DNA of 63,880 nucleotides, filler included, from Vannella sp. (taxonomy: Eukaryota), in assembly GCA_023345925.1 (NCBI GenBank). It is 7 parts of 7 records of this genome, joined end to end, with 100 filler letters (N's around TTAATTAATTAA, not from the genome) between each part and the next. Parts side by side here need not be neighbours in the genome. Positions count along the whole stretch, not along the records: positions 14,572 to 26,435 come from JAJQQN010000364.1; 6 more parts are not named here. One strand, 5' to 3'. Under the pieces are notes generated by a model, which was not told the DNA's origin, made no database searches, and was given only the letters and a program-made list of their open reading frames with translations. Made by a program: the position numbers and the translations under genes. Positions 6,335 to 46,100 of this stretch are shown one piece after another; the first letter of the stretch is position 1; each line of letters begins with the position of its first letter.

Positions 6335-8044
6335 TTATTCTTCAGATAAAAGGAAATCGATGGCTTGGTCTAAGTTATTGCCGCATCTTTCCAATGTTGC
6401 TCTGCAGCGAGATGAAGAGAATCCCAAATTCTCGAGTGCGGCAACGTTTTGCTCCAACAGGTGATCAAAGGGCTTTGGAGGTTCTTCGAACTTTTCATTC
6501 GAAGGTGGAGGTTGGTGATAGCCGTGGGCCTCTCCCCATGAATCCATTGGATAGTATGGATCCTGGGCAGGCTCGTTTTTAGAGAACTCATCGCGCCGAG
6601 GGGAGGGTGAGATATCTTCCGCTGCGAAGTTAATCACAATGGGAGAGAGAGGGAGGATGAGGGTATCGTCTTCAGAAATGATCATGCATTGTTTCCATGA
6701 GAGCTGCCCAGCTGCTGCGGCAGATGCAGGGAACGTGATGCCGACCCTGGCCTGCGCGCCTGGTGCAAGTGGGGAAATCATCGCGTCCAGCCCGATTTCA
6801 GCCCCAACTACCAGTCGAGTACCTTCTGGCCAGGGGACATCTCCAGTATTCATGACAACCCAAGACTTGTTGAACTCTTTGTTGGCTGGCAGCTCCGACT
6901 CATTTGCAGGAGATCCACTCTCCATCTCTTTGCCTTCATAATGTACCACTTGGGCCTCAGGTTGAACTGGTGGCTCCCCGGTCCCAAAGGAGAAAAACGA
7001 GGGTCCTGATTGAGCGGGGGGTTCCTCTTGAATCTCAGGCTGAACTGGTAGCGGCCCGGTCCCAAAGGAGAAAGCCGGTTGAGCAGCGGGGGGTGCAGAA
7101 TCCTGATCGGCTTTGAGGTTGAGAGAGCTGGTATGTTCATCTTCCATTGGTTCTTTCTTCATCTGAATGGGTTTGGAATCAGAAGAGGGCACTGAGGCAT
7201 TGCTCACTTCTATCGCACTCTGGTCTCCAGAAGACAGTTGGTCAGTACCTCTTGAAGCTGACAAATCTGATAGCTGGAAAGGTGAAGAGTGAGGCTCCTG
7301 TGGCTGAGGAGGGACCTGAGATACTGTCCGTGGGTCCTGGATTCCCATTTGCAAGAAAGAAGAGATGTACGCTGATTCAAGAGGAGCAGACCCTTCTCCA
7401 ATGTGTGTCACCGAGGAGCTGTCAGGAATGGAACCGAAATGACTTGGTTCAGGGTGGGGCGAGCCATTGAAGGATCCAGAGTTGGGATACATAGTGCTAG
7501 CGTGTGTCGAACCAGCGAAGGGAGAACCAGGGTAAGCAGTGCTGGGGTAAGGAGAACCAGGATACGCAGTGCTGGGGTAAGGAGAACCAGGATAAGCAGT
7601 GCTGGGGTAAGGAGAACCAGGGTAAGCGGTGCTGGGGTAAGGGGAACCAGGGTTGGTAGTGCCAGGGTGTGTACCAAGATAGGGGTAATCAGAGTAAGTG
7701 GTTACAGGTGGGTACGGTCCAAGAACCGAGCGCGTTACAGACTGGCACATCGTAGAGGCCAAGATGTCGTCGCTGCGCTGTCCAGGTTGGACGACGTAGA
7801 AGCGTGAGTTGGTCAAACGAGTGATTTGATGAAGGTGACTGATAGCCTCCACTAACTCCTGGTCGCAAGAGACAGTCACCAGCTCCTTCTCCTCGTCAAA
7901 GTACTTCAACGAGAAAGCTACCTGCTGAAGCTGAAAGGCGCTCCTCACGCGATCCAGTACATCCTGATAGTGCACTTCATCTGCCTTTAAAGCTATCCTT
8001 CGTACATCATCTCCCCGAGAGACCTTGAGGACGACCCTGGACAT
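6335..8044 (-). CDS. NBR1: NBR1-like selective autophagy receptor (PB1, FW-like Ig domain, UBA)
   Basis: N-terminal PB1 (VVLKVSRGDDVRR...LKYFDEEKELVTVSCDQEL), FNKSWVVMNTGDVPWPEGTRL (NBR1 FW domain) and C-terminal UBA (LENLGF...NNLDQAIDFLL). Intronless. Confidence 0.8.
   Translation of the reverse strand: MSRVVLKVSRGDDVRRIALKADEVHYQDVLDRVRSAFQLQQVAFSLKYFDEEKELVTVSCDQELVEAISHLHQITRLTNSRFYVVQPGQRSDDILASTMCQSVTRSVLGPYPPVTTYSDYPYLGTHPGTTNPGSPYPSTAYPGSPYPSTAYPGSPYPSTAYPGSPYPSTAYPGSPFAGSTHASTMYPNSGSFNGSPHPEPSHFGSIPDSSSVTHIGEGSAPLESAYISSFLQMGIQDPRTVSQVPPQPQEPHSSPFQLSDLSASRGTDQLSSGDQSAIEVSNASVPSSDSKPIQMKKEPMEDEHTSSLNLKADQDSAPPAAQPAFSFGTGPLPVQPEIQEEPPAQSGPSFFSFGTGEPPVQPEAQVVHYEGKEMESGSPANESELPANKEFNKSWVVMNTGDVPWPEGTRLVVGAEIGLDAMISPLAPGAQARVGITFPASAAAAGQLSWKQCMIISEDDTLILPLSPIVINFAAEDISPSPRRDEFSKNEPAQDPYYPMDSWGEAHGYHQPPPSNEKFEEPPKPFDHLLEQNVAALENLGFSSSRCRATLERCGNNLDQAIDFLLSEE
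7521..7650 (-). repeat. 30-bp tandem repeat (~4.3 copies) encoding YPGSPYPSTA
   Basis: Unit ggagaaccagggtaagcagtgctggggtaa is directly visible. Confidence 0.95.
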
Positions 8045-8104
8045 GGGAAGGGAAGAGGAAATGAGTTTTCCAGTTCCCCTCTGTCTGATGCACCCCAGAG
8101 CAAG

Positions 8105-9056: not shown

Positions 9057-11513
9057 ATGCGCGGTGGGTGGGACAAGAGCTCTGTCGGAGACTTTGTCAA
9101 TGGACAGTTTGTTGCAGCTCCTCTTGGTGCTCCTCGTGTTGCTCCTGTTGCTCCTGTTGCAGAGGATCTGAGTGAGTGTCTCCCTCCAGGTCTGAAGCTA
9201 CCAGTGAACCGAGCAGGTTCCTCGGTTCCTTCTGGGCTGGTGGACCTTCCTGATTCAGGTCCTTTCCCTATTCCCCGGTCTTCATTTGAGCAAGAGACGT
9301 CTTTCTATCGAAGTGAAGCAGCAGGCCTTCTTCCCCTTGGCTTGTTTGGAAGTCCGCAATCTTCCCCCTCTCTCTTTGGTCCCCCTCAAGCGGGCCCAAC
9401 GCCCCCCTTCGGAGCTTCCACAAGAGTGTTCAATGTAAGTGACCTTGAGAATCGGTTGACAGCCGAGTCTGCCAACCCTGGAGGGAGCTTCTTCAACCAG
9501 CCAACTGAACCGCCTCCTTTTCGGCAGTTTCTTGGCGTAGAGGCTGCCTATCCCATCTCACAACACCCATATCAGGTCCCTGGTTATGGTAGTGCGAACT
9601 CAACCGATGCAGAAAGTCTCTCTCATATGCTGGAGCGCGCACGTCTCCAGGATCCACCAGGAGGTGCATTCCCAGAGCACCAAGCGGCGGAAAGGCGAGC
9701 TTTTTCAAATGCTCCGCCGCAGCAGAACTTCAGGGAGCCCTTCGCAGGGTTGGGAAGCCCCTCTCCTGCCATTCGCCCTTCCCGCGAGGAGCTCTTCGCA
9801 ATGCAGCAGCAACAACAGCAGCAGCAGCTCCAAGCATTACGTAACATGAGTCCTCAGATGCAAGAGCAGTACATTCGAATGCAGCAGCAGCAGCAACAGG
9901 AGCAACAACGGTTGTATCAGATGCACATGGCGCAACTGAGAGGGATGACGCCGCAGCAGCAACAAGAATATCATACCTTTATGCAGCAACAGCAGAACCA
10001 GAGAATGTCTCAACAGCAACCTCAATTGAGACCATTCCAACCAGACGGAAGGAACTTCAATGAGGTCCAGAGACCTTTTGCAGCCACAGAAGCACCCCAG
10101 GAACCTCCACTTATAGCTAGAAGAGAAGAATCTTGGGCTCACACCCCTCAAACCCAGGAGAATCGGCAAACTCCACAAAGCGAAACCGGCAATGCTCGGC
10201 CCCCAAGACAGAGGCTGGTCGTCACTGATGTTGGCCCAAATGATCCAAAGCTGACTCCAGAGGAAGTTGGATTTATTGTGACGCGCATCTCCGATGAGGA
10301 AATCGAACAGCTGGAGCGGGAAGAGCGGAAACAGGAAGAAATGTCAAAGATCATCCTTCCTCCCCCTCCACCCGATGACAGGAGGACTGGCACTTACCTC
10401 ACTACTCGTTCTAAGCGTATTCTCGGGAAGGTATGAGCTTTCCATTGAATGCAATGCTCCTAGCTTACATCATTTCAGCTGCCTCCCCTTCTTGAGAGAA
10501 AGGAACAAAGGATCAATCAGGCTATCACTTCACTGCTAGAGACTCTGCAACCCCCTTCGGCTGCCAAAGCCAACAGGGAGAATTTGCTGAACAAGATGCA
10601 ACTCATTGTCGACTCCATTTGGCCAGGCAAGGGAGCCAAACTTCATCTGTTTGGTTCAAGTGCGAACGACTTCTGCCTGAAAGGACATGATGTTGATATG
10701 TGCCTCACAGTGGATCCACTTATTGGTGAGAAGGCTGACATCATCACTCTTCTTGCAAACGCATTGCCACCTGACCAAGTGAAAGATGTTAATCCTATCA
10801 TCTTTGCTCGAGTACCTATTCTGAAGTTCAAAGATATCCAAACTAACCTCTCATGCGATATCTGCATCAACAACATACTTGCTCTTCGTAACACGAAGCT
10901 GTTGGCCGACTATTCTGCAATTGATCCACGGCTCCGTATTTTGGTGCTTGTGGTCAAATTTTGGGCTAAGAGGCGCTCAATTAATGAGCCGTTCACTGGC
11001 ACTTTGAGCTCTTATGCGTACGTTCTAATGTTAATTCAGTTCCTGCAAACTCGAAGTCCCCCTATTCTTCCCTGCTTACAAAGAGCCATTGATAGCAACA
11101 CCCCTCAAGTCACCATTCAGGATTTCAATTGCACTTACAATGAGGACATTGCCAGTTTTAAGAACTTTGGAAGGAACAATAGAGACTCACCGGCTAAGCT
11201 CCTAGTGAACTTCTTCCAGCTCTACGGATTCGAGTACGATTACATTCATTCAGTTATCTGCGTGAGAACAGGCGGTTTTGTCTCCAAAGACGCAAAGCAG
11301 TGGATGATCCCTTCCAATCCCCGCGAGTGTTCCTTCTTTGCGCTTGAAGATCCCTTTGACACAACTCATAACTTGGGCCGCGTGGTTCATCGAGTGGGAG
11401 TGGAAACCATCCGCAATGAGTTTGAGCGCGGATACAAGATTCTGGTCAAAACTGGTGATTTGGAGCGAACCACACGGCAGTACACAGAAGAGAACCCAGA
11501 CACTCGATGGTGA
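9057..11513 (+). CDS. Cid1/URT1-type terminal uridylyltransferase (~802 aa) with long disordered polyQ N-terminus; intron 10431-10478
   Basis: LFGSS...DVDMC...CDICINN catalytic aspartates, GTLSSYAYVLM, and LEDPFDTTHNLGR (nucleotide-recognition motif with the His typical of TUTases). Confidence 0.9.
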
Positions 11514-19310: not shown

Positions 19311-19493
19311 ACCTGTTAAAGTAACATTTGATGTTTGGTGAGATCAATGTCAATTCACAAAATATGATGGTTGACGAATTGACCAACCGATCGAGCAATA
19401 ACATCATTCCTTCTATCCCATAATAGCCTGCATGTTGCCAGGATTGACTACGAGGAGGTATTTTCTGCGGTACTACACTAAATACACTAAAGA

Positions 19494-21266
19494 ATGCGTG
19501 TGAAGAACGAAGAAGATAGGAGCCTGAGTCTTGGAATGCTGTCCTTGCAAAAGGATCTCCCTCTCTTCTCTGGAACACATGTGGCGATGTGCCGTGTCAC
19601 GGCGACTGAGCGGATTGCTTCGGAGGACGTAGCTCCGGTGGGGTTGGTATTGGTGGTGGATGTGAGTTCGAGCATGGAGGGGCAGAAACTGGAAGCGTTG
19701 AAGAACACGATCTTGTTTGTGATCTCTTCTTTGTCATCCAAAGACCTACTGGGGATTGTGGAGTACCACAGCACTGCCAGGACAGCATTGACTCTCACCA
19801 AGATGGACCTCTCCGGAAAGGAAAAGGCGAAATCTGCCGTTCAAGCAATGAGAGCGACTGGACTGACTAATCTCAGCGGAGGGCTTCTGGAAGGCCTCCG
19901 CCTATTCCCTCCTGGTGACCCGATGATGGTCAAATCGCTGATTCTGATGACTGATGGAGAGATCAACGAGGGGATACTGACGTCCTCTGGAATCTCTGCG
20001 ATGGTGGACGCAACTGGAGTGGATTGTGCCATCAATACCTTTGGGTATGGTTGCTCTGTGCCAATGGAGCTTCTGGCTGCCATTGCAAGGCAGAAAGGAG
20101 GGATGTATTATCACATCCAGGATGTTGAGACGATTGCCTCCTCTTTCGCGGACTGCTTGGGAGGGATTCTCTCCATCCGAGGACAAGGACTCTCTTTGAA
20201 AGTTGAGTTGTCCCCAGATGTTGTATTTGGAAGGATCTTGACCGCACGTGAAATGGTGCAAGACGGGTCTTCTCTGAAAATGGCTCTGGGAGACATCCAG
20301 GATGGCGAAGAAAGAGATGTCCTTTTTGAATTCACTCTCAAACACTCGGAGGCCGGGACTCAAGTTGTGGCAAGCGCTACTTTGGAGTACTATGATGTCC
20401 TCACAGAAACGCTAACAACAGTTGGTTGCCGACTCTCGGTCCAACGCCGAGTGGCCGTGGATGACAAGAAAGATCTCCGAGTGGATTCAAGCTTGAATAG
20501 AGTCAGATGCGCTGAGTCTATCTCCGGAGCTTTCAAACTTGCCAGAGTAGGATTGTATGAGAAAGCAAGGGAGCAGCTCTCTCTTGCTATCCAGGCCATT
20601 CAGGCCTCCCCTTCTGGACAAGAAGAACTTTCTCAGTTGCTTGTTGGGCAGCTTGAGGCCGCTTTGGTCGCAACACACAATTCAGATGTGTTCTTCTCAA
20701 ACGGGAAATGCTATCTGGCTGCAACAATTGATATGCTCTATCAGCAACGCTCCAGTCCCGGTTACTCACCTGCTTACCCGCCTACTTACCCAACCAGTTC
20801 CACATCATCCTCGCCCACCAGCCCCTATCCAACTGCCGCAAGCTATTCTCCTTCAATTCACAGTCGTAGTTACTCTCCGCCGAGCCCTTGCTATTCTCCA
20901 TCAAGCCCAAGCTACTCTCCTTCTAGCCCATGCTATTCTCCGTCGAGCCCATGCCATTCTCCTTCGAGCCCAAGTTACTCTCCATCGAGCCCATGCTATT
21001 CTCCTTCGAGCCCAAGTTACTCTCCATCGAGCCCAAGCTATTCTCCTTCGAGCCCAAGCTACTCTCCTTCGAGCCCAAGCTATTCTCCTTCGAGCCCAAG
21101 AGACTCTCCATCGAGCCCAAGTTATTCTCCATTCTATTCCTTCCGCAATCCGGGTGAAGCTGAGAGGTCCCCTCTAGCTGTGAAGGAGCCGCCAAAAATG
21201 TTCCAAACTGCAAAACGCACCCAAATGCTCTCCTTGTTGCAAAGTGCCCAGCGCACCTCCGAGTAA
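19494..21266 (+). CDS. vWA-domain protein with C-terminal RNA-Pol-II-CTD-like heptad array
   Basis: MIDAS motif [18 protein letters not shown]. Twelve tandem YSPSSP(S/C) heptads. Confidence 0.88.
20871..21131 (+). repeat. 21-bp tandem repeat, 12 copies plus a partial, encoding YSPSSPS-type heptads
   Basis: Unit ta(c/t)tctcc(a/t)tcgagccca(agc/agt/tgc) is directly visible. Confidence 0.97.
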
Positions 21267-21347
21267 CCATTTAGCCTTTCACGATCCTCTGAAGCAGGGC
21301 TCCGCAGAGTATGGATACTCAAATACTAAGCCCATGAATGATGTTTG

Positions 21348-24300
21348 TTATCTCAAGTTTATCGACAGGGCGGGATGGCGTTGAGAAATCATTTCTAGAG
21401 CGTGAGAAGTTGTGTGGGTATTGCGCATATGAATAATTCTAAGAGAGCAGATTCCAGGGAGGTGAATGAGAGCACTATCAGAAATCATGGAGTCCTCCAC
21501 CCAAAGCACTTGAAGATGCTTTAGCACTTGCAGAGGGAGAATAGCTGAGTTAGTGATGTTATTCCCACTCACATCAACTTCACGAAGACAACTGAGTCGA
21601 ACCAGCTTGGCTATACAGTTGTCTGTTAGTGCTTGTTGGCGCAAACTAAGGTAAGTCAGCGAATGCATGTTCCGGAGGAAGTTGACTGCTTCATCTCCTA
21701 TTCCGTTCTCATTGACACGATTATTGAGTCTCAGTCGAACCAAGTTCTTCATTGGCAGGAGGAATGAGAGGTGCCCGATTGCACCCCTCCGGGACATCCA
21801 AGGCCTGGTGTTCGCAATCGGGTTTCCAGAAAGATCCAAATCAGTCAGATGATTTGCCATTCGAGAGAAGCTTTTGTGGTCAGTGTGGCGGTCCAGGCCG
21901 ATTTGGTTGAAGGACAGATCCAGAGTTTGTAACGCACTCATGTTGCTCAGTGCACTTACGCCCTCTCCGGTGATAAAATTGTTTGCGAGGCTGAGTCGAG
22001 TGAGAGAAGTGAGACCGGAAAAGACGCCTTCTATTGAGTCGTCATACATTTCGGAGTTTTCAATACTAAGGGAGGTCAAATGGGTTAACACAGCCAGTGA
22101 AGATTGCTTCCCAAGTGTGAGAAGCTGAGTTAAATACAATTCGTTAAGATCAGGTAGCTCCCTTAGTCGGTAGATACTTGTAGGGCTCAGCTCCTGCCCT
22201 GGGAGATGCAATGCCCGAAGAGTGGTTATTTGGATAATACTGTCAATCCACTCATCTGTAATACAACTTGCGTTCGTCCCACTTGCTTGCAATAGATTCA
22301 AACTGATGAGGCACTGAAGTTGGGGCACATGGAAGAGCACAAAGCTGATATTGACAGAGGAATATGACATATCTAAGAATTGTAATTTCCTGAGACCTGC
22401 AACCATTGCACAGAGCTGCTCTCCATTTCCACACTCTTGTAGATGCGAAACGTTTAGTTGTCGAAGGCTGTCCCTCATCTCCAGTAGGAAGCCCCAGCTG
22501 TGGATTCCGTTGCACCCTTCCAAGTTCAGATCAACCACGTGTGAAAGCCGTCCCCCAAGTTGGTCCAAGCTTTCAGCAGAGATAGTGCAGTGAGAAAGAT
22601 CTAAATAGGTGAAGGATTCTGCCAAGTCGCCCAACGAGACGATAAGTGATTCCGGACGAGAATCTGCTCGTGTACTTGTTCTCTGGAAGCGATCAGGAAT
22701 CATCAGACCTTGGATTGGTAGCAAGTTGCCATTTGGTCTTTGAAAAACGCTCTCGAATAGCCCAGTGACTCCGTATCTCCGAAGACTGGTATGGAAAACC
22801 TCTGTCAGTAGTGAAGGAGGTAAAATGGACAAGTCAAAGCCCCGAATCTTTCGTTCTTGATGAAATATGAGATCTCCTTCACCATAAAGGTCCATAACTT
22901 TGCGCATTGCAATGTCCCGAAGAGATATGGGTTGAATAGAAGTGAGCAAATGCCGCGACTCTTCGTCCACAACGTTCCAAATAGGAATAGAAACATGTTT
23001 GAAGAGTTCTACTTGCCCTTCTGCACTACGAGAGAAATATAAACGGCTCTTCCAGATGGGCACTGTGTCATCATCCGGACTAAGTCCCATCTTCCACCGA
23101 TAATTCACATCTGGCTTATTCCAAAACTCCAAGCAATAAGGAAGCAGCTCTCCTTGGGTGGAGCTATTCAGGTGAACTTCATCTCGTTCGAGCAAGTCAC
23201 TTTGGACCGCAATAAAAGAAGGAATCTTGATGAGCTGCATCCACTTCAGTTTGATCAGGAACCGTTGGCTGTACGCTCTCCAGTGATCCATCACACTCTT
23301 AATGTCTTTGGGAAAGAGAATGGGGACGTTTGGAAGCATTAAACCCCACGGCTGCTCGAGGAAGCCGAAAATCTCTGCTGCTTTCCATGCTTGGACCCCG
23401 AGGAAACGCTCACGCTCTATATCAACTGATAGACTGAGAGGAAAGGACTCTTTGGAAGCCTCAGTCTCATCAGATCCTCGAACGAGCCCGCTGATGCTCT
23501 TGATCGTGCTCTTTGCACTCTTACTGAACTCTTTACCGATCTGGGAGAACATTGAAGGGATCCAGTACTCTCCATTATCTTCTGCACGCTTGATCTGACG
23601 CTCCTCTTCGGCTCTGGCTTCTTCTGCCTCCCAACCTTGAGCGGCCAGTGACGCAAAGATGCGAGAGCAAGCTCCCTGGGTGATCCTCTTCGTATCAAAG
23701 CTTACAGAGAAGCATGTGTAGGTTACACTGTTCTCCTTAGATCGAGGCTGGAGCTTTCTGACCAGTTCTCCCTCTTCAAGCGACATTCCTTCCACCTTTC
23801 GGGGACTCTCTGGGTCTGTAGCCTTCCTCGGTGAATGAGAGCCATCACACGATATACTGGGCATCTCTTGTCCCTCTTTCTCAAGGATGGACTGGATACG
23901 AGCTCTCATCTCCACAAGAGAAGGTGTTGGAAACTGTTCTTCGTACAGTTGGGGAGAGGAAGGCTCCAGGTCGATGTGATTGGCCATTCCGACAACGAAG
24001 CGCTTTCCAAGACGAAGTCTGAACAGGTACATGCCCGACAGGACGTCCTTTGAAGCCTCTGTGAGTCTGTGATCATCAAAAGAGGCTCGTTTTCGCTTAC
24101 CCGGCGGCTGCTGTCCACGAGGAACTCGAATTGAGTGTCTTTTGGATTGTCATGTAAGATGACATGCTTGCTAGCTGCATAAACGACCTTGCGAAGCGTC
24201 TCTCGCCTCTCTGCGATGGTCGAGTCAACAAAGTAGACGTAGCTGTACCCAGCAAGCCGCCACTCCTCTGGTATATCACGACGATCAATCTCTACAATCG

Positions 24301-37194: not shown

Positions 37195-40100
37195 TTAAAT
37201 CCAAGCGGCCCATCCCTCGTACATGGAGGCGAGGTTGGAAGAGCTGGTGGCTTCTCTGATGGTTTGGTCGACTTGGTCTTCGACAGAAGCGTGGTGAGCT
37301 CGGAAATCGTTGCCTTGAAGCTTGGATTTGATGCGGCGCAATGCACTGATGGCGTATGTGTTGCGCTCTTGTTGGCAGTGGCCGGGGCTCTCTCCTCCCT
37401 CTTCGTCTCCTGATTGTAAGAGTGGTTCAGTGATCCCTTCCTTCTGGTCTTCCTTCCACTGAGCGAGCTGTTGTGTCGCTGCTTCACCAACATCTCTAAT
37501 CTGCTGGGCAAGTTCCTGTAGCGTTCCCAAAGTTTCCGGCAAATTGACTTTTCGTAAAGTTGGCTTCGCATTTGACTCTGGATGAAGCAAGGTTTTAAAG
37601 AGTGGCTGCCATTCTTCCTCATTGCGTATCATGAGAGCCCTGTACTTGGAATAGAGATTCTTGGTAAGTACATAAATGGCAGAGTCTGAGGCGGTTTCCA
37701 TTTGTCTTAGAATATGTCGGACAAGCGGGATGATGGCTTGGAAATGGGACAGAAAGTGTGAGAGTTGTTGAGAAAGAGAAGTCGCTTTGCCCAAGAAGGA
37801 TTTCGACTTCAGAGCGAGTTGCGTTTCCAGAGATTGCGTTGACGCACTTTGCTGTTGGGCCAGTTTCGTGTGATGAATCAAACCTTCTTTGTTGCTTTGA
37901 TAGGCGGTTCTTCTTTCCTCCAGTTGGATGGAGATATCTTTGATGGACTTGTGATGGGTTTGCAACATGTTTTGGTGATTAGTGAGTGCTGACAGCAGTT
38001 CTGAGGTCTCGTTCCAGATGTCTTTGGACTGATTGGATGAGGAGTTGTGGAGCTCTTCAAATGAGGCGATTCCTTTGCAGATTTTAGTGAGCTTCCGGAC
38101 AGCTTCTGTCGAGGATGTGAAGGCTGCCTGACGGGCGATAATCTGTCCGTGGACGAGAGTGTGATATCCTCCAGATCTTCTTTCCCAAGATACGAGCTCG
38201 TCTGTCTCTCTTTCGTTCTCGGACAAGGAAGAATGTTGCTTCTGAAGGAGCACTTCCTGCGCTTGAAGCTCCGATGAAAGGGAACTCAAGCGGCTTCGTA
38301 TTTTAGAGAGTGGAGTGGTTCCATCATCCAGAAGGCCTTCATGCATCAAGCTGAACTGAACGAGGAACTCTTTTTCTCGTTCAAGCGAAGTTCTGAACAA
38401 GTTCACACGGAGTTCATGATCACGCTCCAAAAATTGACCAGAATAGAGCTCCATGAGAGTATTCCGCAAACCCTCCACAGTTTCACCTTCACTCAAGGAA
38501 GGATTACTCGTATTCAGATTCACACTCTCTTGAGGTGCACTTGAAGGATGAGGTCCGCTGTTAAGCAAATTGCAAGCAGAGGCGAAGATGGGACCAATCA
38601 CGTTTGATTGAATGCAACCCAAATATGCTGAAAGGAGCTTGGTGGCGCTGTTGTATGTGGTCAGAGAACAAGATGAGTCAAGAGATAAAAGCTCGTTCAG
38701 AAGCTGGAGCTTCTGCAGCCCGAAAAGGTCGAGATGGAGGTGCATTACATTCTGAGAGCTTTCTTTTTGGGATAAAGTGGCTGCTTTTGCTAAAGCAGAG
38801 GTCATCAAGTCCAATTGATCCAATAAATACAGAATCTCCTCTTGATTGACGAGCATAGATCGTAGACTCTCACTGGAGTGGAGGATTTGGTGTTGGCAAA
38901 GATCAATTTGGTCTTGCAGAAGGGATGTACGTTGTTGCAAATCCTGTTGCGCAACTTTTCTATCTTCCATCTTCCGTTGTAGATCTTCAATTTCTTCATT
39001 ATCTTCCCAAGAGTGCTCGGTTACTGCATCAAGCTCTTGGATCTTGGCCTGAGTTGAACAAATTTGCTCTGATAGTGTAGAATCATCCTCACTCAGTCCC
39101 TCCAGCTCACATTGAGACTGTTGAAGTTGCTGAAGAGTGCGAGAGCACTCAATAAGAGCAAGTTCTATCTGGTTTCGACCGGAGCAAAGCTCATCTTTCC
39201 GCCCTGCAATTGTCATGATGATCTGTTCGAAGGAGCTCTCCATTTGGTCCAGAACTCCAGCAATTGCGGTGAAGAGTTGCTCCACAGACAGGCTTGTGTC
39301 TGAGGCCAGAACCAAGTCTATTACAGCACGAATTCCACTGACATTTGAAGCAAACCCTTCTGGCCAAGTTGGCTGCTCACAGAATTTGGACGCCTCGCGA
39401 GACAGAACTCCACAAAGAGATGTAGGGTTTACATGTCCTATTCGCGGTCTTACTGAGGAGGGCATCCGCTTGGCACCATTCAGTTCAGCCAAAAGAGACT
39501 CAGTATTTCTGAGACGGGTTGAAAGCATCTGGAATTCGTCTAGTAGCTGATGATTTCGTTGGTCTGAAGTCTCTAATTCTAAATCGAAGTCTTTTCCTGA
39601 TCTTTGACACTTGATAGCGAGATTAAGGGCTTCCTCTGTGTAAGCCACTTCATGGTCGCTCCAATAGGTTGGAGGTAGGGACACTGTTATGTCCTTGTAA
39701 CTTCCTAACAAACTAGTACATTCCAAGACTAGCTCCTGCAACCGAAGCTGGCTTTCTTGGTACAGTTTTAACGCCCCTTGGAATGGCACAATGATATCTG
39801 GTCGTTCAATCGACAAGCTCATCAGTTCTGAAGACTTATCAAAATCATAAGTTGGCTCAGAACGAGCGAGAGTTTCTGATAGCTTCTCAAAGGTGTTTCC
39901 ACGTAAGGAAGAAGTTATTTCCTCAATTGCAAGTCGCTCATCCTTTCTCTTTCTTGATAACTGTTGCAATTTCACTGAGATTTGTTGCTGAGCTGTGGTT
40001 GCCTCGTGAATGAGCCTTTTTGCCTCCTTCTGTTCACTCATAAGCTCAAGTTGCCTTGATTCTTGCTGAGTAATACTCTGCTTGAGCGCACATGCCTGCT

Positions 40101-43100
40101 GGGAGGCTTCTCCAGCTTCTTGGGAAAGTTGCAGTTGTTCTAGCTTAAGTTGAATTACAGAGGAAGCACGGGCAATAAGTTGGTCTAACTCTGGTATAAA
40201 GCCGAGAGAATTAGATAGATTATCTGCAGTACCAGGAGCGCGAGCAGCGAGTAGCTCCAAGTTGGTCTCCAACTCCATTCGTAATTTGGCTTGACTCTCG
40301 ACTTTGTCGAGAGTCCAATCCACCAAAGGGTCGTAGACAAAAGCTTCGAGGAGGGTGAGCAGAATCTCCTTATTTGATCGGAGGACATTCAATGTACTGC
40401 AGCAAGACGCTTGGAAGGTTCCCTTCGTTCCCGTCGGTCCGAACGACTTTGTTATCAGATTAGTTAAACGGTACGGGACTACTTCAGGTATCGCTAGCTT
40501 CAGCCCACGTTCAAAGCAGATGTTGTAGTCGATGTGAATGATCTCTCCACGTGCAAGATCCACAAGTATGTTGTCAAGGTGGCGATCACCAAGCCCGAGG
40601 ATGTACCCGATCATGGACATAACTGCAACAGAGCGTGTGAACGCAAGTTGCTTTCCCCACCAATGATCGGCTGTTGGAGAGGCGCACCAAAGTGCTCTCT
40701 CTAGCAGGTCAGCAGGAGCCTCTTTTTGTAAACTGGTGAAGACTTGTTGGAGGACTTCAGTTGGCCAATGCTTGCGAGTTCTCAAACTCATCTCTGAAAT
40801 GCCAACAGCCTGGAGGGCAGGCTTCATGGCTGCATTAAACTGTTCAATTGGGCGGAGAGGCACTTGTTTGCGGGTTTGCCAGTGTTTGTAAACCTGGAAC
40901 ATCGGCACTGCTCCATCTACCCACTGAATGAATCCGGAACGTCTTCCAGTGGGAATCACAGCGTAAGTCCGAGATGCCAGACCTTTGGTATCTGGTCTAC
41001 TGTGTTGGAAGAGTTGATTTGCTACTGTGAGGCACTGCATTATGCGCTCATCCAAGTGTAGATCCTCCCTACCTTTGAGAAGGTATGGATACTTCCTTCC
41101 ATCGCTTCCGAGCAGCGCCATCTTTTTAGGTTTGGTCTTCGTTGGAAGAATTGATATTTGTGGGCGGAAAGCTTGAACAGTCACTTCGCAGGAAGACAGT
41201 CCAGGCATTCTGATGATAGACCCTTGCATTCGTGCAAGCTTGGGACTGACATCTTGCAAGCGTAGCTGGGTTTTCATGAGTTGGGCGAATTGGTCTTTGA
41301 TTCTGTCTAACGATTGCCAAGCTTTCCAAGGATCTCCGTAGTCAACAGGAGAGCGGAACTGTTCCACAGCACTGAAGAGCTTTGGCTTGAATTCTTTTTG
41401 GAAAGCTGATTCAAACGGAGTCTCAGCGGGTCGGTTCAAAGTTTCCATGTAGTCTGCAAGCTGCAGCAAAAACAGTTTCATCAGAGATTGATACTTTTCC
41501 AAGATCTGGCGGTGATGTTCTTCTTTAGAACCGGAGGAGGAGAGGATTCTCCGATGCTCCTCTCTCATTGTATTACAACGAGCAGGAAGGCGAGAGGCAA
41601 TCTGCTCCAGAAGAATTAGTCCTGTCTCAGGCCAAAGCACTGTGAGTCGTTCAAATTCACACAAAGTAGTTTGAACTTGGTCATAGAGCAAAGGATGAGC
41701 CTTTTGCAGAGAAATTGCCAACTCATGGATGCGATGATGCCTTAAAGTACCAATTTGATACTCCTGTTCTCCAACTAGGATAGGATACATGATCTCATGT
41801 GGCCGATCCACTCCTAGTTTCATGATGAGGCGTTGGACTTCAGCTTGTATCGAAGAATCTGGATGTCCAAGCCGTGAAAACAATTGGGGAATGATACTGT
41901 GCCATACTGCAACTGAGGTTCCCTCAAGGCGATTTGAAAATGAAGATGCCACCTTGGTTCCATGTTTTGTGAGAACTTCAAGGATGCGCAGGGTTGCTGA
42001 GATCGTTTTTACGGCGTTTTGACTCCCTTCTGTTTGAAGAGAGATAAATTGGAAGTAGGAGTGCAATGCCTTCTCATGGAAAGACCAGATGGTAGACTCT
42101 TGGCTTCTTTTCAATTCACAAATAGCTGTGATGGTGTTTTCTGAAAGGTCTGGAAAGTTATTCGCCAAAACCATTGGGGAGCAATTGGGATGTTGCACAG
42201 CATTGAGAAATGTACTCCAATCTGTTGGGGTAGCAATTGCTTTGAGTGCGGATATAAATTTCCTTTGAGCGCGGTGAGCTTGCTTCCAGCACCAATCAGC
42301 CAGTTGAAAATGTACATTGGCAGAGGACGGCAGCGTCATTGTGGCGACGAAGAACGATTGTCCAGAAGCACAATTAGCATAGCTACTTCCGGCTGCAAGC
42401 AGGTCCTCTTTAAGAGGTGAGAATGGAGCTGAGTTATCTTCTTCTAGCCAGTTACTGAGTAAATGCAATGCTTCCACAGCTACTTCTGTGGATTGAGTCA
42501 GGACAGCCTCATCGATAATTAGGTGTTGAAGCTTGGTAAGAGCCACTCCAGGTTCATTCAAACGGATCACTTTACAGCGTTCTAGTTCCACAGATAATGT
42601 AGCAGGGATCATTGCTGCAATGCGTTCGTGCAGTCTCAAATTATTTTGTTGTCGAGCCAATGAAAGGTGAGGAAGTAAGTTATCTCCTGGGTTTCTGACT
42701 GTCCTAAGTAACATATTGCTGCAGCTAGCACCAATTTCGGATGAAAGCGCCACCCTCTCGGGGCCTGACTGGCTTTTTGAACCTGAGGCACATTGAAGAG
42801 CTATTTGGAAGGGAAGAATTTCGTTTGGATTGGAGGAAGTTCGTAATCCGGTTCTGCAAAGCGTCTTCAAATTGACTTGTTTTTCTTCGGAGGGTTTGGC
42901 AAGGTAGGAGAGTGCTTGGACATACACTTCATTTTGGAAGTCTGCTAACGAAAATCTCTTCTCTTGTGAAGCAATGACTGGAGCTGGTAACGAAGACTCG
43001 CTCTCCATATGATACAAGGCAGAAACGTATGAAGACTTATCATGGAGCGCGGTATTAACGCGATTTCGGACCTTCGTTGTGAATTGTTCCAATGAAAGAA

Positions 43101-46100
43101 GATTCCAGTCTCCCAGAGCAGCAGCGCACTCCACAAGACGAGAAGTCACAAAATTCGTTGTTTGATCAGAAAGGGGAGTTTGGCTGCAAAGAATCTGGCG
43201 ATACTGATCAGCTGCTGCTTCTAGCTGCTGATCAGCTTGATTACGGATTGCTTCGATCCAAGGAGCTTCAATTCCAATTGGAAAAGGAGGGGCGAATCGA
43301 TTCAAGAAGTGTTCTACATAACCAATCAAAGCATCACTTTCCTTTGCTATACATAGTGCTAATGCAAGTTGTGACAGGCAGTATTCAGCGTCAACTCTGA
43401 CGGCTGAGGTGGACTTGAAGGTTTGGGAATCAGCTAATTCAGTAAGGCGACACACTGAATGATAGATAATAGATGAAAGGTTGCCACTGACTACAGAAGC
43501 AACAACGGCTGGTTGCCGCATTCTTGCAAACCAATCGACACACACTTTTCGGTTATCCACAAAGAACTTGATCCCACTTGGCAGCGAGGACGCAATAGTA
43601 CCCTCACCAGCAATGAATATTCGCTTTTCCAGTAAATCAACAAACTGGAGGAGGGATTGGAGTGCTTGAGGAGATTCAGGGCAAAGAGATGACACAGAAA
43701 TTGGGGCAGAAGGATACTGAGGCTCCCACTGAGCAACATTCCAAAGCATCTGCTCAATAGCTCCGAGAGTTTTCATGGGGCTACCAAAATGGGTAGTGAG
43801 AAAAGCATTGATGCATAAATTGACAGCTTCCCACGACATCCAGAAACGGGCGATTCGGATATTAATTCCTGAAGCTATTTGCACGACTTGCTGAAGGGCC
43901 TCTGTATCGAGCGAGCTGTCAGCCTCCAGTTGTTTGGAAAGCGAGGATGGCAAACGAGTCAATTCTAAGAACCGATTCAGAAACTCTGATGAAATGGTAC
44001 ACTGGTGAGGAGCTTGGAGAAAACTCATGAACTCTTGGAAGTGAAATCCCTTGAAAGAGCGAGTGGGAGGCATGGTTAAAATCGCAAACAGGGTTGAATC
44101 CATCATAGTGGTAAACCTTTCTGGCGGGGCTAGTTGGAAAGGAAGTGATTCTAGAGCAGTTGCTGCTAGTCCTTGAATCGCTTCCGATGAGTCAGCAAGA
44201 CCAAACCATGCAAGAGCACGGATTGGAGAAAGGAGAATCCCGACATCTTTTGCTGGGGACTTGGTTAGTAGTTTGCATAAAACTATCCAGGCACTTTGGC
44301 GAATTGGGTGATCCACATGACTAAGAAGAGGAGTGACTGCAGGAAGGACACACGAATAGAGGTTATCGATCTTGTGGTCAAGAGAAGCATTGATAGTATC
44401 AAGAGCTAATAGAATAAGTCTTTTGTCATTCACTTTGGTTGTTATGTCCTTGAGAAGCTCAAAGACTCCCTTTACAATCGGATCAATAAGCTGACAAAAA
44501 GAATCACGAATGAACAGGTGTTGAATAGTCACTAAGGTACAATATTGAAGACGAGGGGACCTCATTATTGGCTCGACGTTCACAGGGTGATACTTTTGGA
44601 GGATGACACTCAACAGTTTAGCACTGTTTTTGAGAAAAGTTTCTCCAGTAAGGACCAACATGTCAAAACAGAAAAGCACACGCGATTGTGAGGCAGAAAG
44701 CACTCTGCTTCCTAATTCATTGAAAGTCAGACTGTGCAGAAGAAAATCCATCTCCTCCTCTATCAACAATTTCAAACTTCGGAGAGTGCTACTCTGGGCG
44801 AGAATAGAGTATGTCCCAAGAATAGCAGTGGTTATTCTACCGCTCCTATGATATCTTAAGCGAGCAAATGCTGAATGAGTGTCAAGTAGTCTCTTGAAAG
44901 GAGAGAACTGGGTGAGCATCCCCAGCAGGGAAAGCACAGAATTATTCAGCTCCAGCAAGCTTACTGTCATGTCCTCAGACAGAGAGGATTCAAGCTGTAC
45001 AAGCAAATAGTCTACGCACAGGGGGTAGTGAGCAGCTCGACTGCTCTCACTCATAGTTCGAAAGCAACGAAGTATCCAGTGATTGACTTATATCTGTTAG
45101 GGAAATTGCCGAATAAAACGAGTGGCGTTTACCTTGTGATTGCCTGATATTCGTATGGAGACTAAAGGCGAGGAGGCTGGTCAAAATCTCGCTCATTTGC
45201 TGCTCCATATTGGTAACAATCCCCGGGACAGTGGATCCAATGGTCAAAAAGCATCTGCACATATGAGTCGATAGGTTCTTCCGAGTGGTAGTCATCGTAC
45301 GAAAGAAGTGCTTGATAAATGGATGCTGTTTTTGCTTTAACGCGCTGGTAGGGGAGAAATGTTTCCACAGAGGAGTGCATTTGGATGCAAAAGCTCTGCA
45401 TGAGACCTGATGTATACCTGTCGTTGACTTTCCAAAGAGGAGCGAAGGTAACAAGTGTTTCCTCAATTGCCTGGCAACTTAGCTCCGGTAACTGCTCAGC
45501 TAATCGCCAGCCCAAGAGAGAGTCAACAATTGTCTGTCACGAACTGATGAGAGAAGGTTGTTTTTGTGATCAGGAGAGGCCTACCACGAAGTAAGGCGCG
45601 AATTGGCTGGTGAAGCGCTGATAGATCATCCGGATCACTTGGATGAGGTATGGGAGGCGATCGACAGTTATTGTGGAAGAGAGAGCTCTAAACTGGCGGA
45701 GTATTGAAGCTATTAAATGCCAGGGGAGGGCTACTCGGGCAAACTGTTGGAGAAAGATGAGCGCGAACCGGAATGGGGAGAGGATCTTAGTACCCCAGCT
45801 ATAACTCTCAAGGAAGCTTCTTGATAGCGTTGATCTTGACATCCTCGAAGTAGCCAATCAATCCCATACGAAGGAAGGACAGCACAAACCAAGGAGATGA
45901 TCTCTACCACGTTTTCTTGCTCATGCGGGCTTCTCTCTGTTAAGAGGGCAAAGAGAAGAGTTGAGAGAACTAACCGAGATGATGTTATAATGTCTTGAAG
46001 GGCAGCTAAGGCATCCCCAAGGTCACCCGACATGTTGGCCTCCTTCATTTGATCCAAGATGGGGCGGACGTTGCTCAAAAGCTGGTGAAGAGGACCACCC

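Follow-up and report, generated by a model that had tools for sequence, protein, structure and literature searches.

The window analysed here, 63,880 nucleotides of Vannella sp. (Eukaryota; GenBank assembly GCA_023345925.1) filler included, that join parts of seven records of this genome end to end, contains on its plus strand at 19494-21266 a gene for a protein of 590 amino acids plus stop (P0001 hereafter), in which a domain of the von Willebrand factor A (vWA) type is followed, in the same frame, by twelve tandem heptads of the type that makes up RPB1's C-terminal domain (CTD) in RNA polymerase II (Pol II). The stop-free open reading frame (ORF) extends from 19491 to 21266, with its first ATG at 19494; as read, the coding sequence is a single exon, and its product aligns with homologues at both its N- and C-terminal ends. 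The vWA domain occupies residues 51-216 (19644-20141) and matches Pfam PF00092 with 61.8 bits against a cut-off of 23.8 (E 1.2e-16), as well as PF13768 and PF13519, and profile matches among the solved structures of the PDB were to ITIH1, ArnB and vWA2. Its metal-ion-dependent adhesion site (MIDAS) has the DxSxS motif D56-V-S58-S-S60 (19659-19673); in 21 family sequences conservation of D56, S58 and S60 reaches at least 90%, and T125 and D154 never vary. The heptads occupy residues 460-543 (20871-21122). Translation, Tandem Repeats Finder and Pfam bear out the original prediction, which had described twelve in-register CTD-type heptads in frame on a MIDAS-bearing vWA protein; its claim that no RPB1 catalytic sequence is present also holds, as Pfam found no RPB1 core domain in P0001, nor any in the window's 15 other largest ORFs.

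The remaining features of the gene, all on the plus strand, frame these two elements. Upstream of the vWA domain, residues 11-37 (19524-19604) are modelled by AlphaFold2 as beta strands (11-17 and 28-37) with a predicted local distance difference test score (pLDDT) of about 89-94. Downstream, the AlphaFold2 secondary structure places a beta-sandwich domain at residues 228-318 (20175-20447), and Foldseek matches about 400 columns to 4fx5, ArnB (8s05) and vWA2 (5a8j). The sandwich is followed by a predicted four-helix bundle at residues 328-417 (20475-20744; helices 328-351, 355-371, 378-393 and 397-417), which completes the three-domain topology seen in vWA2 and ArnB and whose last helix enters a QR element (Q418-R419, 20745-20750) conserved in the family alignment. 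Then comes a degenerate lead-in rich in Ser, Pro, Tyr and Thr (residues 420-459, 20751-20870), predicted to be disordered from its pLDDT. On its other side the array is followed by a broken thirteenth unit, YSPFYSF (residues 544-550, 21123-21143), and, still in the frame of the array, by a C-terminal motif (F570-x-T572...R575..M578) with a predicted terminal helix at residues 573-589 (motif and helix together, 21201-21260; helix pLDDT about 59-76), which lines up with the homologues' own [FYW]xT..[KR]..M termini.

When all six frames of the window were scanned for runs of the form xSPxSPx, 20871-21122 was the sole run of two or more such heptads. The array opens with YSPPSPC and continues as YSPSSP[S/C/R], position 1 being occupied once by H and once by D, and four of its units are YSPSSPS. 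Position 1 is Tyr in 10 of the 12 units; S2, P3, S5 and P6 are present in all 12; position 4 is Ser in 11 units and Pro in one, never Thr, and position 7 is Cys in four. The RPB1 CTD has the consensus YSPTSPS, in which Y1, S2-P3 and S5-P6 are the sites of cyclin-dependent kinases (CDKs), Pin1 and processing factors, and in CTD genetics Y1, S2, P3, S5 and P6 matter and positions 4 and 7 are free, a pattern that the heptads match. The retention of these sites had been predicted as well, and it is complete for S2-P3 and S5-P6 and extends to 10 of the 12 units for Y1. Tandem Repeats Finder delimited the repeat to 20874-21130 and resolved it at a period of 21 (12.2 copies, 83% matches, score 339) and also at a period of 42 (6.1 copies, 89% matches, score 374).

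With the tail alone as a phmmer query, the CTDs of RPB1 proteins were retrieved with E values down to 2.9e-70, and 111 of the 120 matches listed carry RPB1 core domains. Eight matches that did not look like RPB1, from this search and from one with the alignment of the heptad carriers, were re-scanned with Pfam: four contained the repeat only, one gave nothing, and the rest paired it, or in one case (P0175) a mere sequence likeness to it, with other domains. Draft animal gene models are found here, in which CTD repeats stand together with a major facilitator superfamily (MFS) transporter (P0148) or a peptidase M2 domain (P0333). A mussel gene model with a MATH domain (P0175) matched the tail of P0001 by sequence and had no CTD repeat on the Pfam re-scan, and for P0176 the precomputed annotation gives the repeat plus a MATH domain. 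For P0148, P0333 and P0175/P0176, genuine fusion and the merging of separate gene models are both conceivable.

Among sequencing runs, the locus was found in three DNA runs of one biofilm-metagenome study and in no RNA run; the short-read contigs of the three were compared with the window. They reproduce the upstream body of the gene (20597-20808) and, at 20821/20832-21014 and 21071-21535, the two edges of the array, and their cover of 20597-20808 and 20821-21014 is free of loose ends. No contig bridges 20809-20820 and none spans the entire array, so that the number of heptad copies rests on the window assembly. The runs differ from the window at five single bases. Both differences in the array region are synonymous (20900, P469P; 21125, Y544Y in the broken thirteenth unit), and those in the globular part comprise one synonymous (20195, S234S) and two non-synonymous changes (20245, A251G; 20264, D257E). 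The differences point to variation between strains or alleles within the population that was sampled, seen at low depth.

The vWA family to which P0001 belongs is very large, with 77,488 cluster representatives at E <= 0.001 and 9,009 at E <= 1e-30. The exact sequence of P0001 was absent from the protein collection searched, and its best match there was 41% identical, so that no close orthologue is on record. Only a more distant homologue has a named cluster member, from Picozoa, and for the vWA family the protein atlas pointed broadly to Streptophyta and Bacillariophyta. Some members also carry FHA, SAM or DnaJ domains, the FHA-vWA fusions being P0031 and P0035. In most members, a short linker leads from the QR element to the C-terminal [FYW]xT..[KR]..M motif, and it is this linker that the array of P0001 occupies. 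The Thr of this family-wide motif (21201-21227 in the window) is near-constant and recalls the repeated IETTRR-type phosphopeptides of ArnB, as described in the accessible part of PMC6509490; by analogy, it could be a conserved, putative phospho-Thr site for FHA-type readers.

To survey the tails, 204 family proteins were examined, namely 200 from the profile search, three from a search with the alignment of the carriers, and P0001 itself. Eight of them have heptad tails: P0001, P0006 with its 98% identical twin P0045, P0293, P0327, P0246, P0326 and P0328, which makes seven distinct proteins (P0006, P0045, P0246 and P0293 came from the profile search, and P0326, P0327 and P0328 via the carrier alignment). 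The six distinct homologues are 33-38% identical to P0001 in the globular part and bear 5-16 Y-S-P-x-S-P-x units in the same tail. The search for YSPxSP arrays in vWA paralogs that the original prediction had proposed was thereby successful, and the unconserved slippage tract that it had held against itself was not what was found: since six other proteins keep heptads in the same tail at this degree of divergence, the array is no slippage tract peculiar to P0001. No tandem heptads were found in 80 related metagenome loci.

A loose parse, whose sole demand was [STA]P at positions 2-3 and 5-6 and which left Y1 free, yielded 13, 6, 6, 5, 11, 13 and 16 units in the seven distinct proteins; the 13 of the window protein include one lead-in match in another register and omit the broken thirteenth unit. 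Among these 70 units, Tyr is kept at position 1 in 64, Ser at position 2 in 65 and Ser at position 5 in 67, and positions 4 and 7 vary. Two layouts could be distinguished. In P0001, P0293, P0006 and P0327 the array lies before the C-terminal motif; in P0246, P0326 and P0328 a single heptad stands right against the motif, with a long array after it. P0246 passes the threshold of the Pfam CTD-repeat model PF05001 (RNA_pol_Rpb1_R) with 32.2 bits against 20.3, in 10 stretches, and P0006 fails it at 14.9.

In a FastTree phylogeny of 195 rows, every heptad carrier fell within one clade of 14 rows (support 95). A quick IQ-TREE analysis (LG+C20) of 28 rows and 459 columns, with the tails excluded and P0045 left out as a near-duplicate, resolved the carriers into two clades: clade A, in which P0001 and P0293 (support 95) join P0006 and P0327 (98) at a value of 84 in the Shimodaira-Hasegawa-like approximate likelihood ratio test (SH-aLRT), and clade B, in which P0328 joins P0246 and P0326 (100). 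Clade B is sister (98) to five proteins without heptads. Long branches separate the clades. Of all rows P0001 has the longest branch (1.43), and its nearest listed row, the heptad-bearing P0327, is 2.25 changes per column away. The heptad label needs two changes on this tree, and shuffled labels never did as well (0/500); monophyly of all seven carriers was not rejected by the approximately unbiased (AU) test (p 0.136). Judged from these sequences, the trait either goes back to the common ancestor of both clades and was lost once, or was gained twice, and under either history the heptads have been kept over paths of more than 2 changes per column.

The tails of the neighbouring branches carry motifs of other kinds. 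All five sisters of clade B (P0007, P0008, P0206, P0192 and P0277) have in the same tail at least two copies of an acidic-aromatic motif, [RK]FDS[AC]D[FW]x[LIM], which to us looks like an Atg8-interacting (LIR/AIM) motif, and in P0006 the heptads are accompanied by five NPF motifs, which we take to be ligands of EH domains. In this family, the tail may serve quite generally to present short docking motifs.

At the DNA level, none of the 66 pairs among the twelve units of P0001 is identical; they differ at 1-7 of 21 bases, 3.2 on average. The variable sites are the third bases of the codons for Y1, P3, S4, P6 and position 7, and changes of amino acid are confined to positions 1, 4 and 7. The value of pS (the proportion of synonymous sites that differ) is 0.41, pN (its non-synonymous counterpart) is 0.071, and pN/pS is 0.17, a ratio behind which few independent events stand, because many of the silent differences trace to one ancestral 42-base double unit. 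By this pattern of substitutions, the array looks selected, under purifying selection. The original prediction had spoken of near-identical units and a recent expansion; this was not borne out, given the divergence of the units and a trait common to two clades.

The AlphaFold2 model, built from 21 family sequences, has a mean pLDDT of 76.4 and a predicted template modelling score of 0.71. Its vWA domain spans residues 49-225, and pLDDT falls below 50 across most of residues 425-560, so that the tail holding the heptads is predicted to be disordered. The best Foldseek matches were the bacterial vWA protein 4fx5, ArnB (8s05_A, E 1.7e-22, template modelling (TM) score 0.77-0.78 by target length) and vWA2 (5a8j, E 2.1e-20, TM score 0.74 by target length), followed by ITIH1 and Sec23/Sec24. 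By sequence, solved structures matched in the vWA part only, with an E value of 5.6e-27 for ITIH1. As modelled, the body of P0001 is a vWA domain plus beta-sandwich plus four-helix bundle, which is the fold of ArnB and vWA2 and of the Sec23/24 trunk. The possibility of a secreted Ser-Pro glycoprotein was rejected, as the sequence has no signal-like hydrophobic stretch at its N-terminus and the fold is of an intracellular type. Within the helix bundle, residues 335-396 (20496-20681) match Pfam PF25524 (CPSF6-like RSLD, N-terminal region) with 27.0 bits, exactly the cut-off; the match lies below the cut-off in P0246, P0293 and P0006 and is precomputed for several homologues. It could reflect kinship with an mRNA 3'-end factor or mere helical composition, and neither is proven; a literature search on the PF25524 model returned nothing.

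On this basis, we tentatively lean, at a little below an even chance, towards a tail that is selected, disordered and multivalent, whose Ser-Pro sites would be phosphorylated and then read, so that a MIDAS adaptor could be coupled to its partners in a switchable manner. Proline-directed kinases would phosphorylate the Ser-Pro sites of the tail, and partners that bind phospho-Ser-Pro or Tyr would then read the heptads. The globular part would bind a partner via its metal site, and the tail would couple it to other machinery in a phosphorylation-dependent way, for which archaeal ArnB and its partner ArnA are the parallel. The writers and readers of the tail could be of the classes that act on the Pol II CTD, because the positions that matter there are the ones kept here. 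As for its origin, the array probably arose from an SP(x)Y element beside the C-terminal motif and lengthened as double units of 42 bases were duplicated: units two apart differ less (2.2 bases on average) than neighbouring units (3.45), and Tandem Repeats Finder obtains more matches at a period of 42 than at 21. Among 110 family proteins that were parsed, 23 have SP(x)Y directly before the C-terminal motif, and 11 of the 23 are near-copies of one protein. The adjacency of this element to the motif, together with the full heptad that abuts the motif in clade B, suggests a home-grown local seed for the array rather than capture from RPB1.

Several observations weigh against the reading of a phosphorylation-dependent coupling tail. 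Pfam PF05001 gave no row for P0001 at E <= 1, nor for its tail alone at E <= 10. Among the homologues, P0327 has Ala at position 5 in three of its five units, and P0293 is degenerate, with four of its six units strict. No obvious nuclear localisation signal (NLS) was seen by eye in P0001. The parallel with ArnB is one of fold, the sequence match (E 1.8e-16) lying in the vWA part only, and the phosphosites of ArnB lie within its helix bundle rather than within a disordered tail of repeats. Heptads are not needed for the core function of the family, because they are as rare as 8 of 204 proteins and 0 of 80 loci, and the few independent events behind the ratio pN/pS tell in the same direction.

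Other explanations were weighed against the same evidence. The tail could be a low-complexity spacer, that is, a Ser/Pro/Tyr-rich linker expanded by slippage, of which only the length, flexibility or composition matters and in which the likeness to the CTD is without function; we regard this as somewhat unlikely. It would agree with the position of the array in the most variable part of the family, where other members have few residues or unrelated repeats, with the rarity of the trait, with a unit number that varies from 5 to 16 among the homologues and with the degenerate units of P0293 and P0327. A periodicity of 21 and 42 bases is typical of slippage or unequal exchange, and the shared SP(x)Y seed could yield similar repeats repeatedly without selection on the array. 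Against this, the substitutions between units are mostly silent and four positions are constant, seven proteins retain both the Tyr and the heptad register although their folded parts have diverged, and drift would not keep Y1, S2, P3, S5 and P6 fixed with positions 4 and 7 left to vary. The same constancy also speaks for a true trans-acting CTD, recognised by the kinases, phosphatases, prolyl isomerase and CID/WW-type readers of the Pol II CTD, which would act as a nuclear decoy or competitor or deliver a partner to transcription sites or condensates. Such a role seems unlikely to us, although several observations speak for it: the tail alone retrieves RPB1 CTDs, Y1 is kept in the great majority of the 70 units even though the parse did not demand it, P0246 exceeds the CTD-repeat threshold of Pfam, and there are established cases of short CTD mimics competing for a CID domain, an example being the Nrd1-interacting motif (NIM) of Trf4, which binds that domain in competition with the CTD according to the accessible part of PMC4186968. 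In addition, the roughly 16 canonical units of P0328 end in a K/R-rich stretch and the array of P0246 contains a PKRK-type stretch, both of which resemble an NLS in our own reading. However, the fold of the family belongs to cytoplasmic proteins of the adaptor or coat-like kind, and the NPF and acidic-aromatic repeats that tails of the sister clade bear instead suggest a general motif platform rather than a role in transcription; moreover, position 4 is Ser and not Thr in nearly all units, position 7 is Cys in a third of them, and PF05001 is silent on the tail of P0001.

The last two alternatives concern how the array came to stand where it is read. That ectopic recombination or gene conversion recently captured the array from RPB1 of the same organism appears very improbable. 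The peptide similarity to RPB1 CTDs is high, and the duplication unit of 14 residues (42 bases) echoes the double-heptad length of the Pfam CTD model; nevertheless, heptad tails in two vWA clades across long branches make the trait not recent, the units differ at 15% of their bases, position 4 departs from the canonical Thr, and a plausible local seed is present in SP(x)Y. That the junction between vWA protein and array is an assembly chimera, or that the array is intronic or untranslated, is hardly credible. The unbridged bases at 20809-20820 and the lack of a contig across the array in the three short-read runs would fit an artefact, but the assemblies of six other organisms, each independent, show the vWA-plus-heptad architecture within a single frame as well, 170 codons through the tail are free of stops and lead in frame to the C-terminal motif, and the contigs on either side of the gap have no loose ends. 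Chimerism is therefore unlikely.

Compared with the RPB1 CTD itself, the array of P0001 is alike in its tandem heptads with Y1, S2, P3, S5 and P6 kept, in its free positions 4 and 7 and in its predicted disorder. It is unlike the CTD in the lack of an RPB1 core, in having only 12 units, in the conserved helix after the array, in Ser for Thr at position 4 and Cys at position 7, and in the silence of PF05001. The closest known relatives of the body are ArnB and vWA2, which share the three-domain arrangement of MIDAS vWA, beta-sandwich and four-helix bundle, described for vWA2 in the accessible part of PMC6509490; the same part reports that the C-terminal portion of ArnB carries phosphosites and is needed to bind the FHA protein ArnA. 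The likeness extends to a C-terminal part that is regulatory and phosphorylated in ArnB, and to the FHA-vWA fusions of the eukaryotic family. ArnB differs in being archaeal and in its phosphorylation, which falls on Thr in the helix bundle and not on a Ser-Pro repeat tail. No gene for an FHA partner was seen beside the vWA gene, among the 15 other largest window ORFs scanned and with no search aimed at it. The COPII trunk of Sec23/Sec24 likewise combines vWA domain, beta-sandwich and helical core, but P0001 has no zinc-finger, gelsolin or Sec23/24 Pfam domains, and the TM scores are lower, at 0.32-0.38 by target length. The plant WAV3-type RING-vWA ligases differ in their RING, which P0001 lacks; the WAV3_C model leaves no more than a faint signal, on the helix bundle of the homologue P0246 (14.2 bits against 39.1, E 0.039). 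Neither Sec23/24 nor the WAV3-type proteins have a heptad tail.

Among non-polymerase proteins, Trf4, Sen1 and Spt5 are alike in having CTD-like peptide features for the binding of CTD readers or kinases. They differ in that they bear single motifs or other repeats, in contrast to the full, near-canonical array on the unrelated vWA scaffold of P0001. PIE-1 carries a CTD-like motif. Together with Pgc and Pem-1, it interferes with CTD Ser2 phosphorylation, according to the available portion of a preprint (bioRxiv 10.1101/2021.07.12.452040). The NIM of Sen1 is likewise a single CTD-mimic motif, and the C-terminal repeats of Spt5 are described as a CTD-like but differently patterned substrate in the accessible part of PMC7070488. 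The open-access literature on CTD-like arrays in other proteins yielded short mimics and Spt5, and no vWA protein with CTD heptads.

To our knowledge, the Pol II CTD is usually seen as the unique landing pad of one protein, and the mimics known so far consist of one short motif each. In P0001, a complete and apparently selectively maintained heptad array stands on an unrelated scaffold and recurs in deeply diverged relatives. It is conceivable, if doubtful, that a clade of uncultured protists has moved the 'CTD code' to a second protein, a trans-acting CTD independent of RPB1 that would titrate CTD factors or deliver MIDAS-bound cargo to transcription. The heptad carriers could serve as a natural experiment on what a heptad suffices for (kinase targeting, reader binding, entry into condensates), on how such arrays arise (local seed versus capture), and on whether CTD-type signalling serves outside transcription. 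They also offer a first functional handle on a very large and uncharacterised eukaryotic family of ArnB-like vWA proteins, whose variable tails seem to be platforms for different short motifs.

The rest of the window provides the setting of the gene. Long single ORFs encode an SMG1 kinase of 2630 amino acids (37195-45087, minus strand), a Cid1/Trf4-type poly(A) polymerase (10464-11513, plus strand) and an NBR1-like protein with PB1, Ig and UBA domains (6335-8104, minus strand). For the poly(A) polymerase, the protein atlas pointed broadly to Arthropoda and Nematoda. No functional link between these neighbouring genes and the vWA gene was found. A patatin-like lipase and a leucine-rich repeat (LRR) protein are also among the 15 other largest ORFs, which include no polymerase subunit. 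The layout of the window is gene-dense and apparently intron-poor, with a G+C content of about 50%, which fits a small protist genome.

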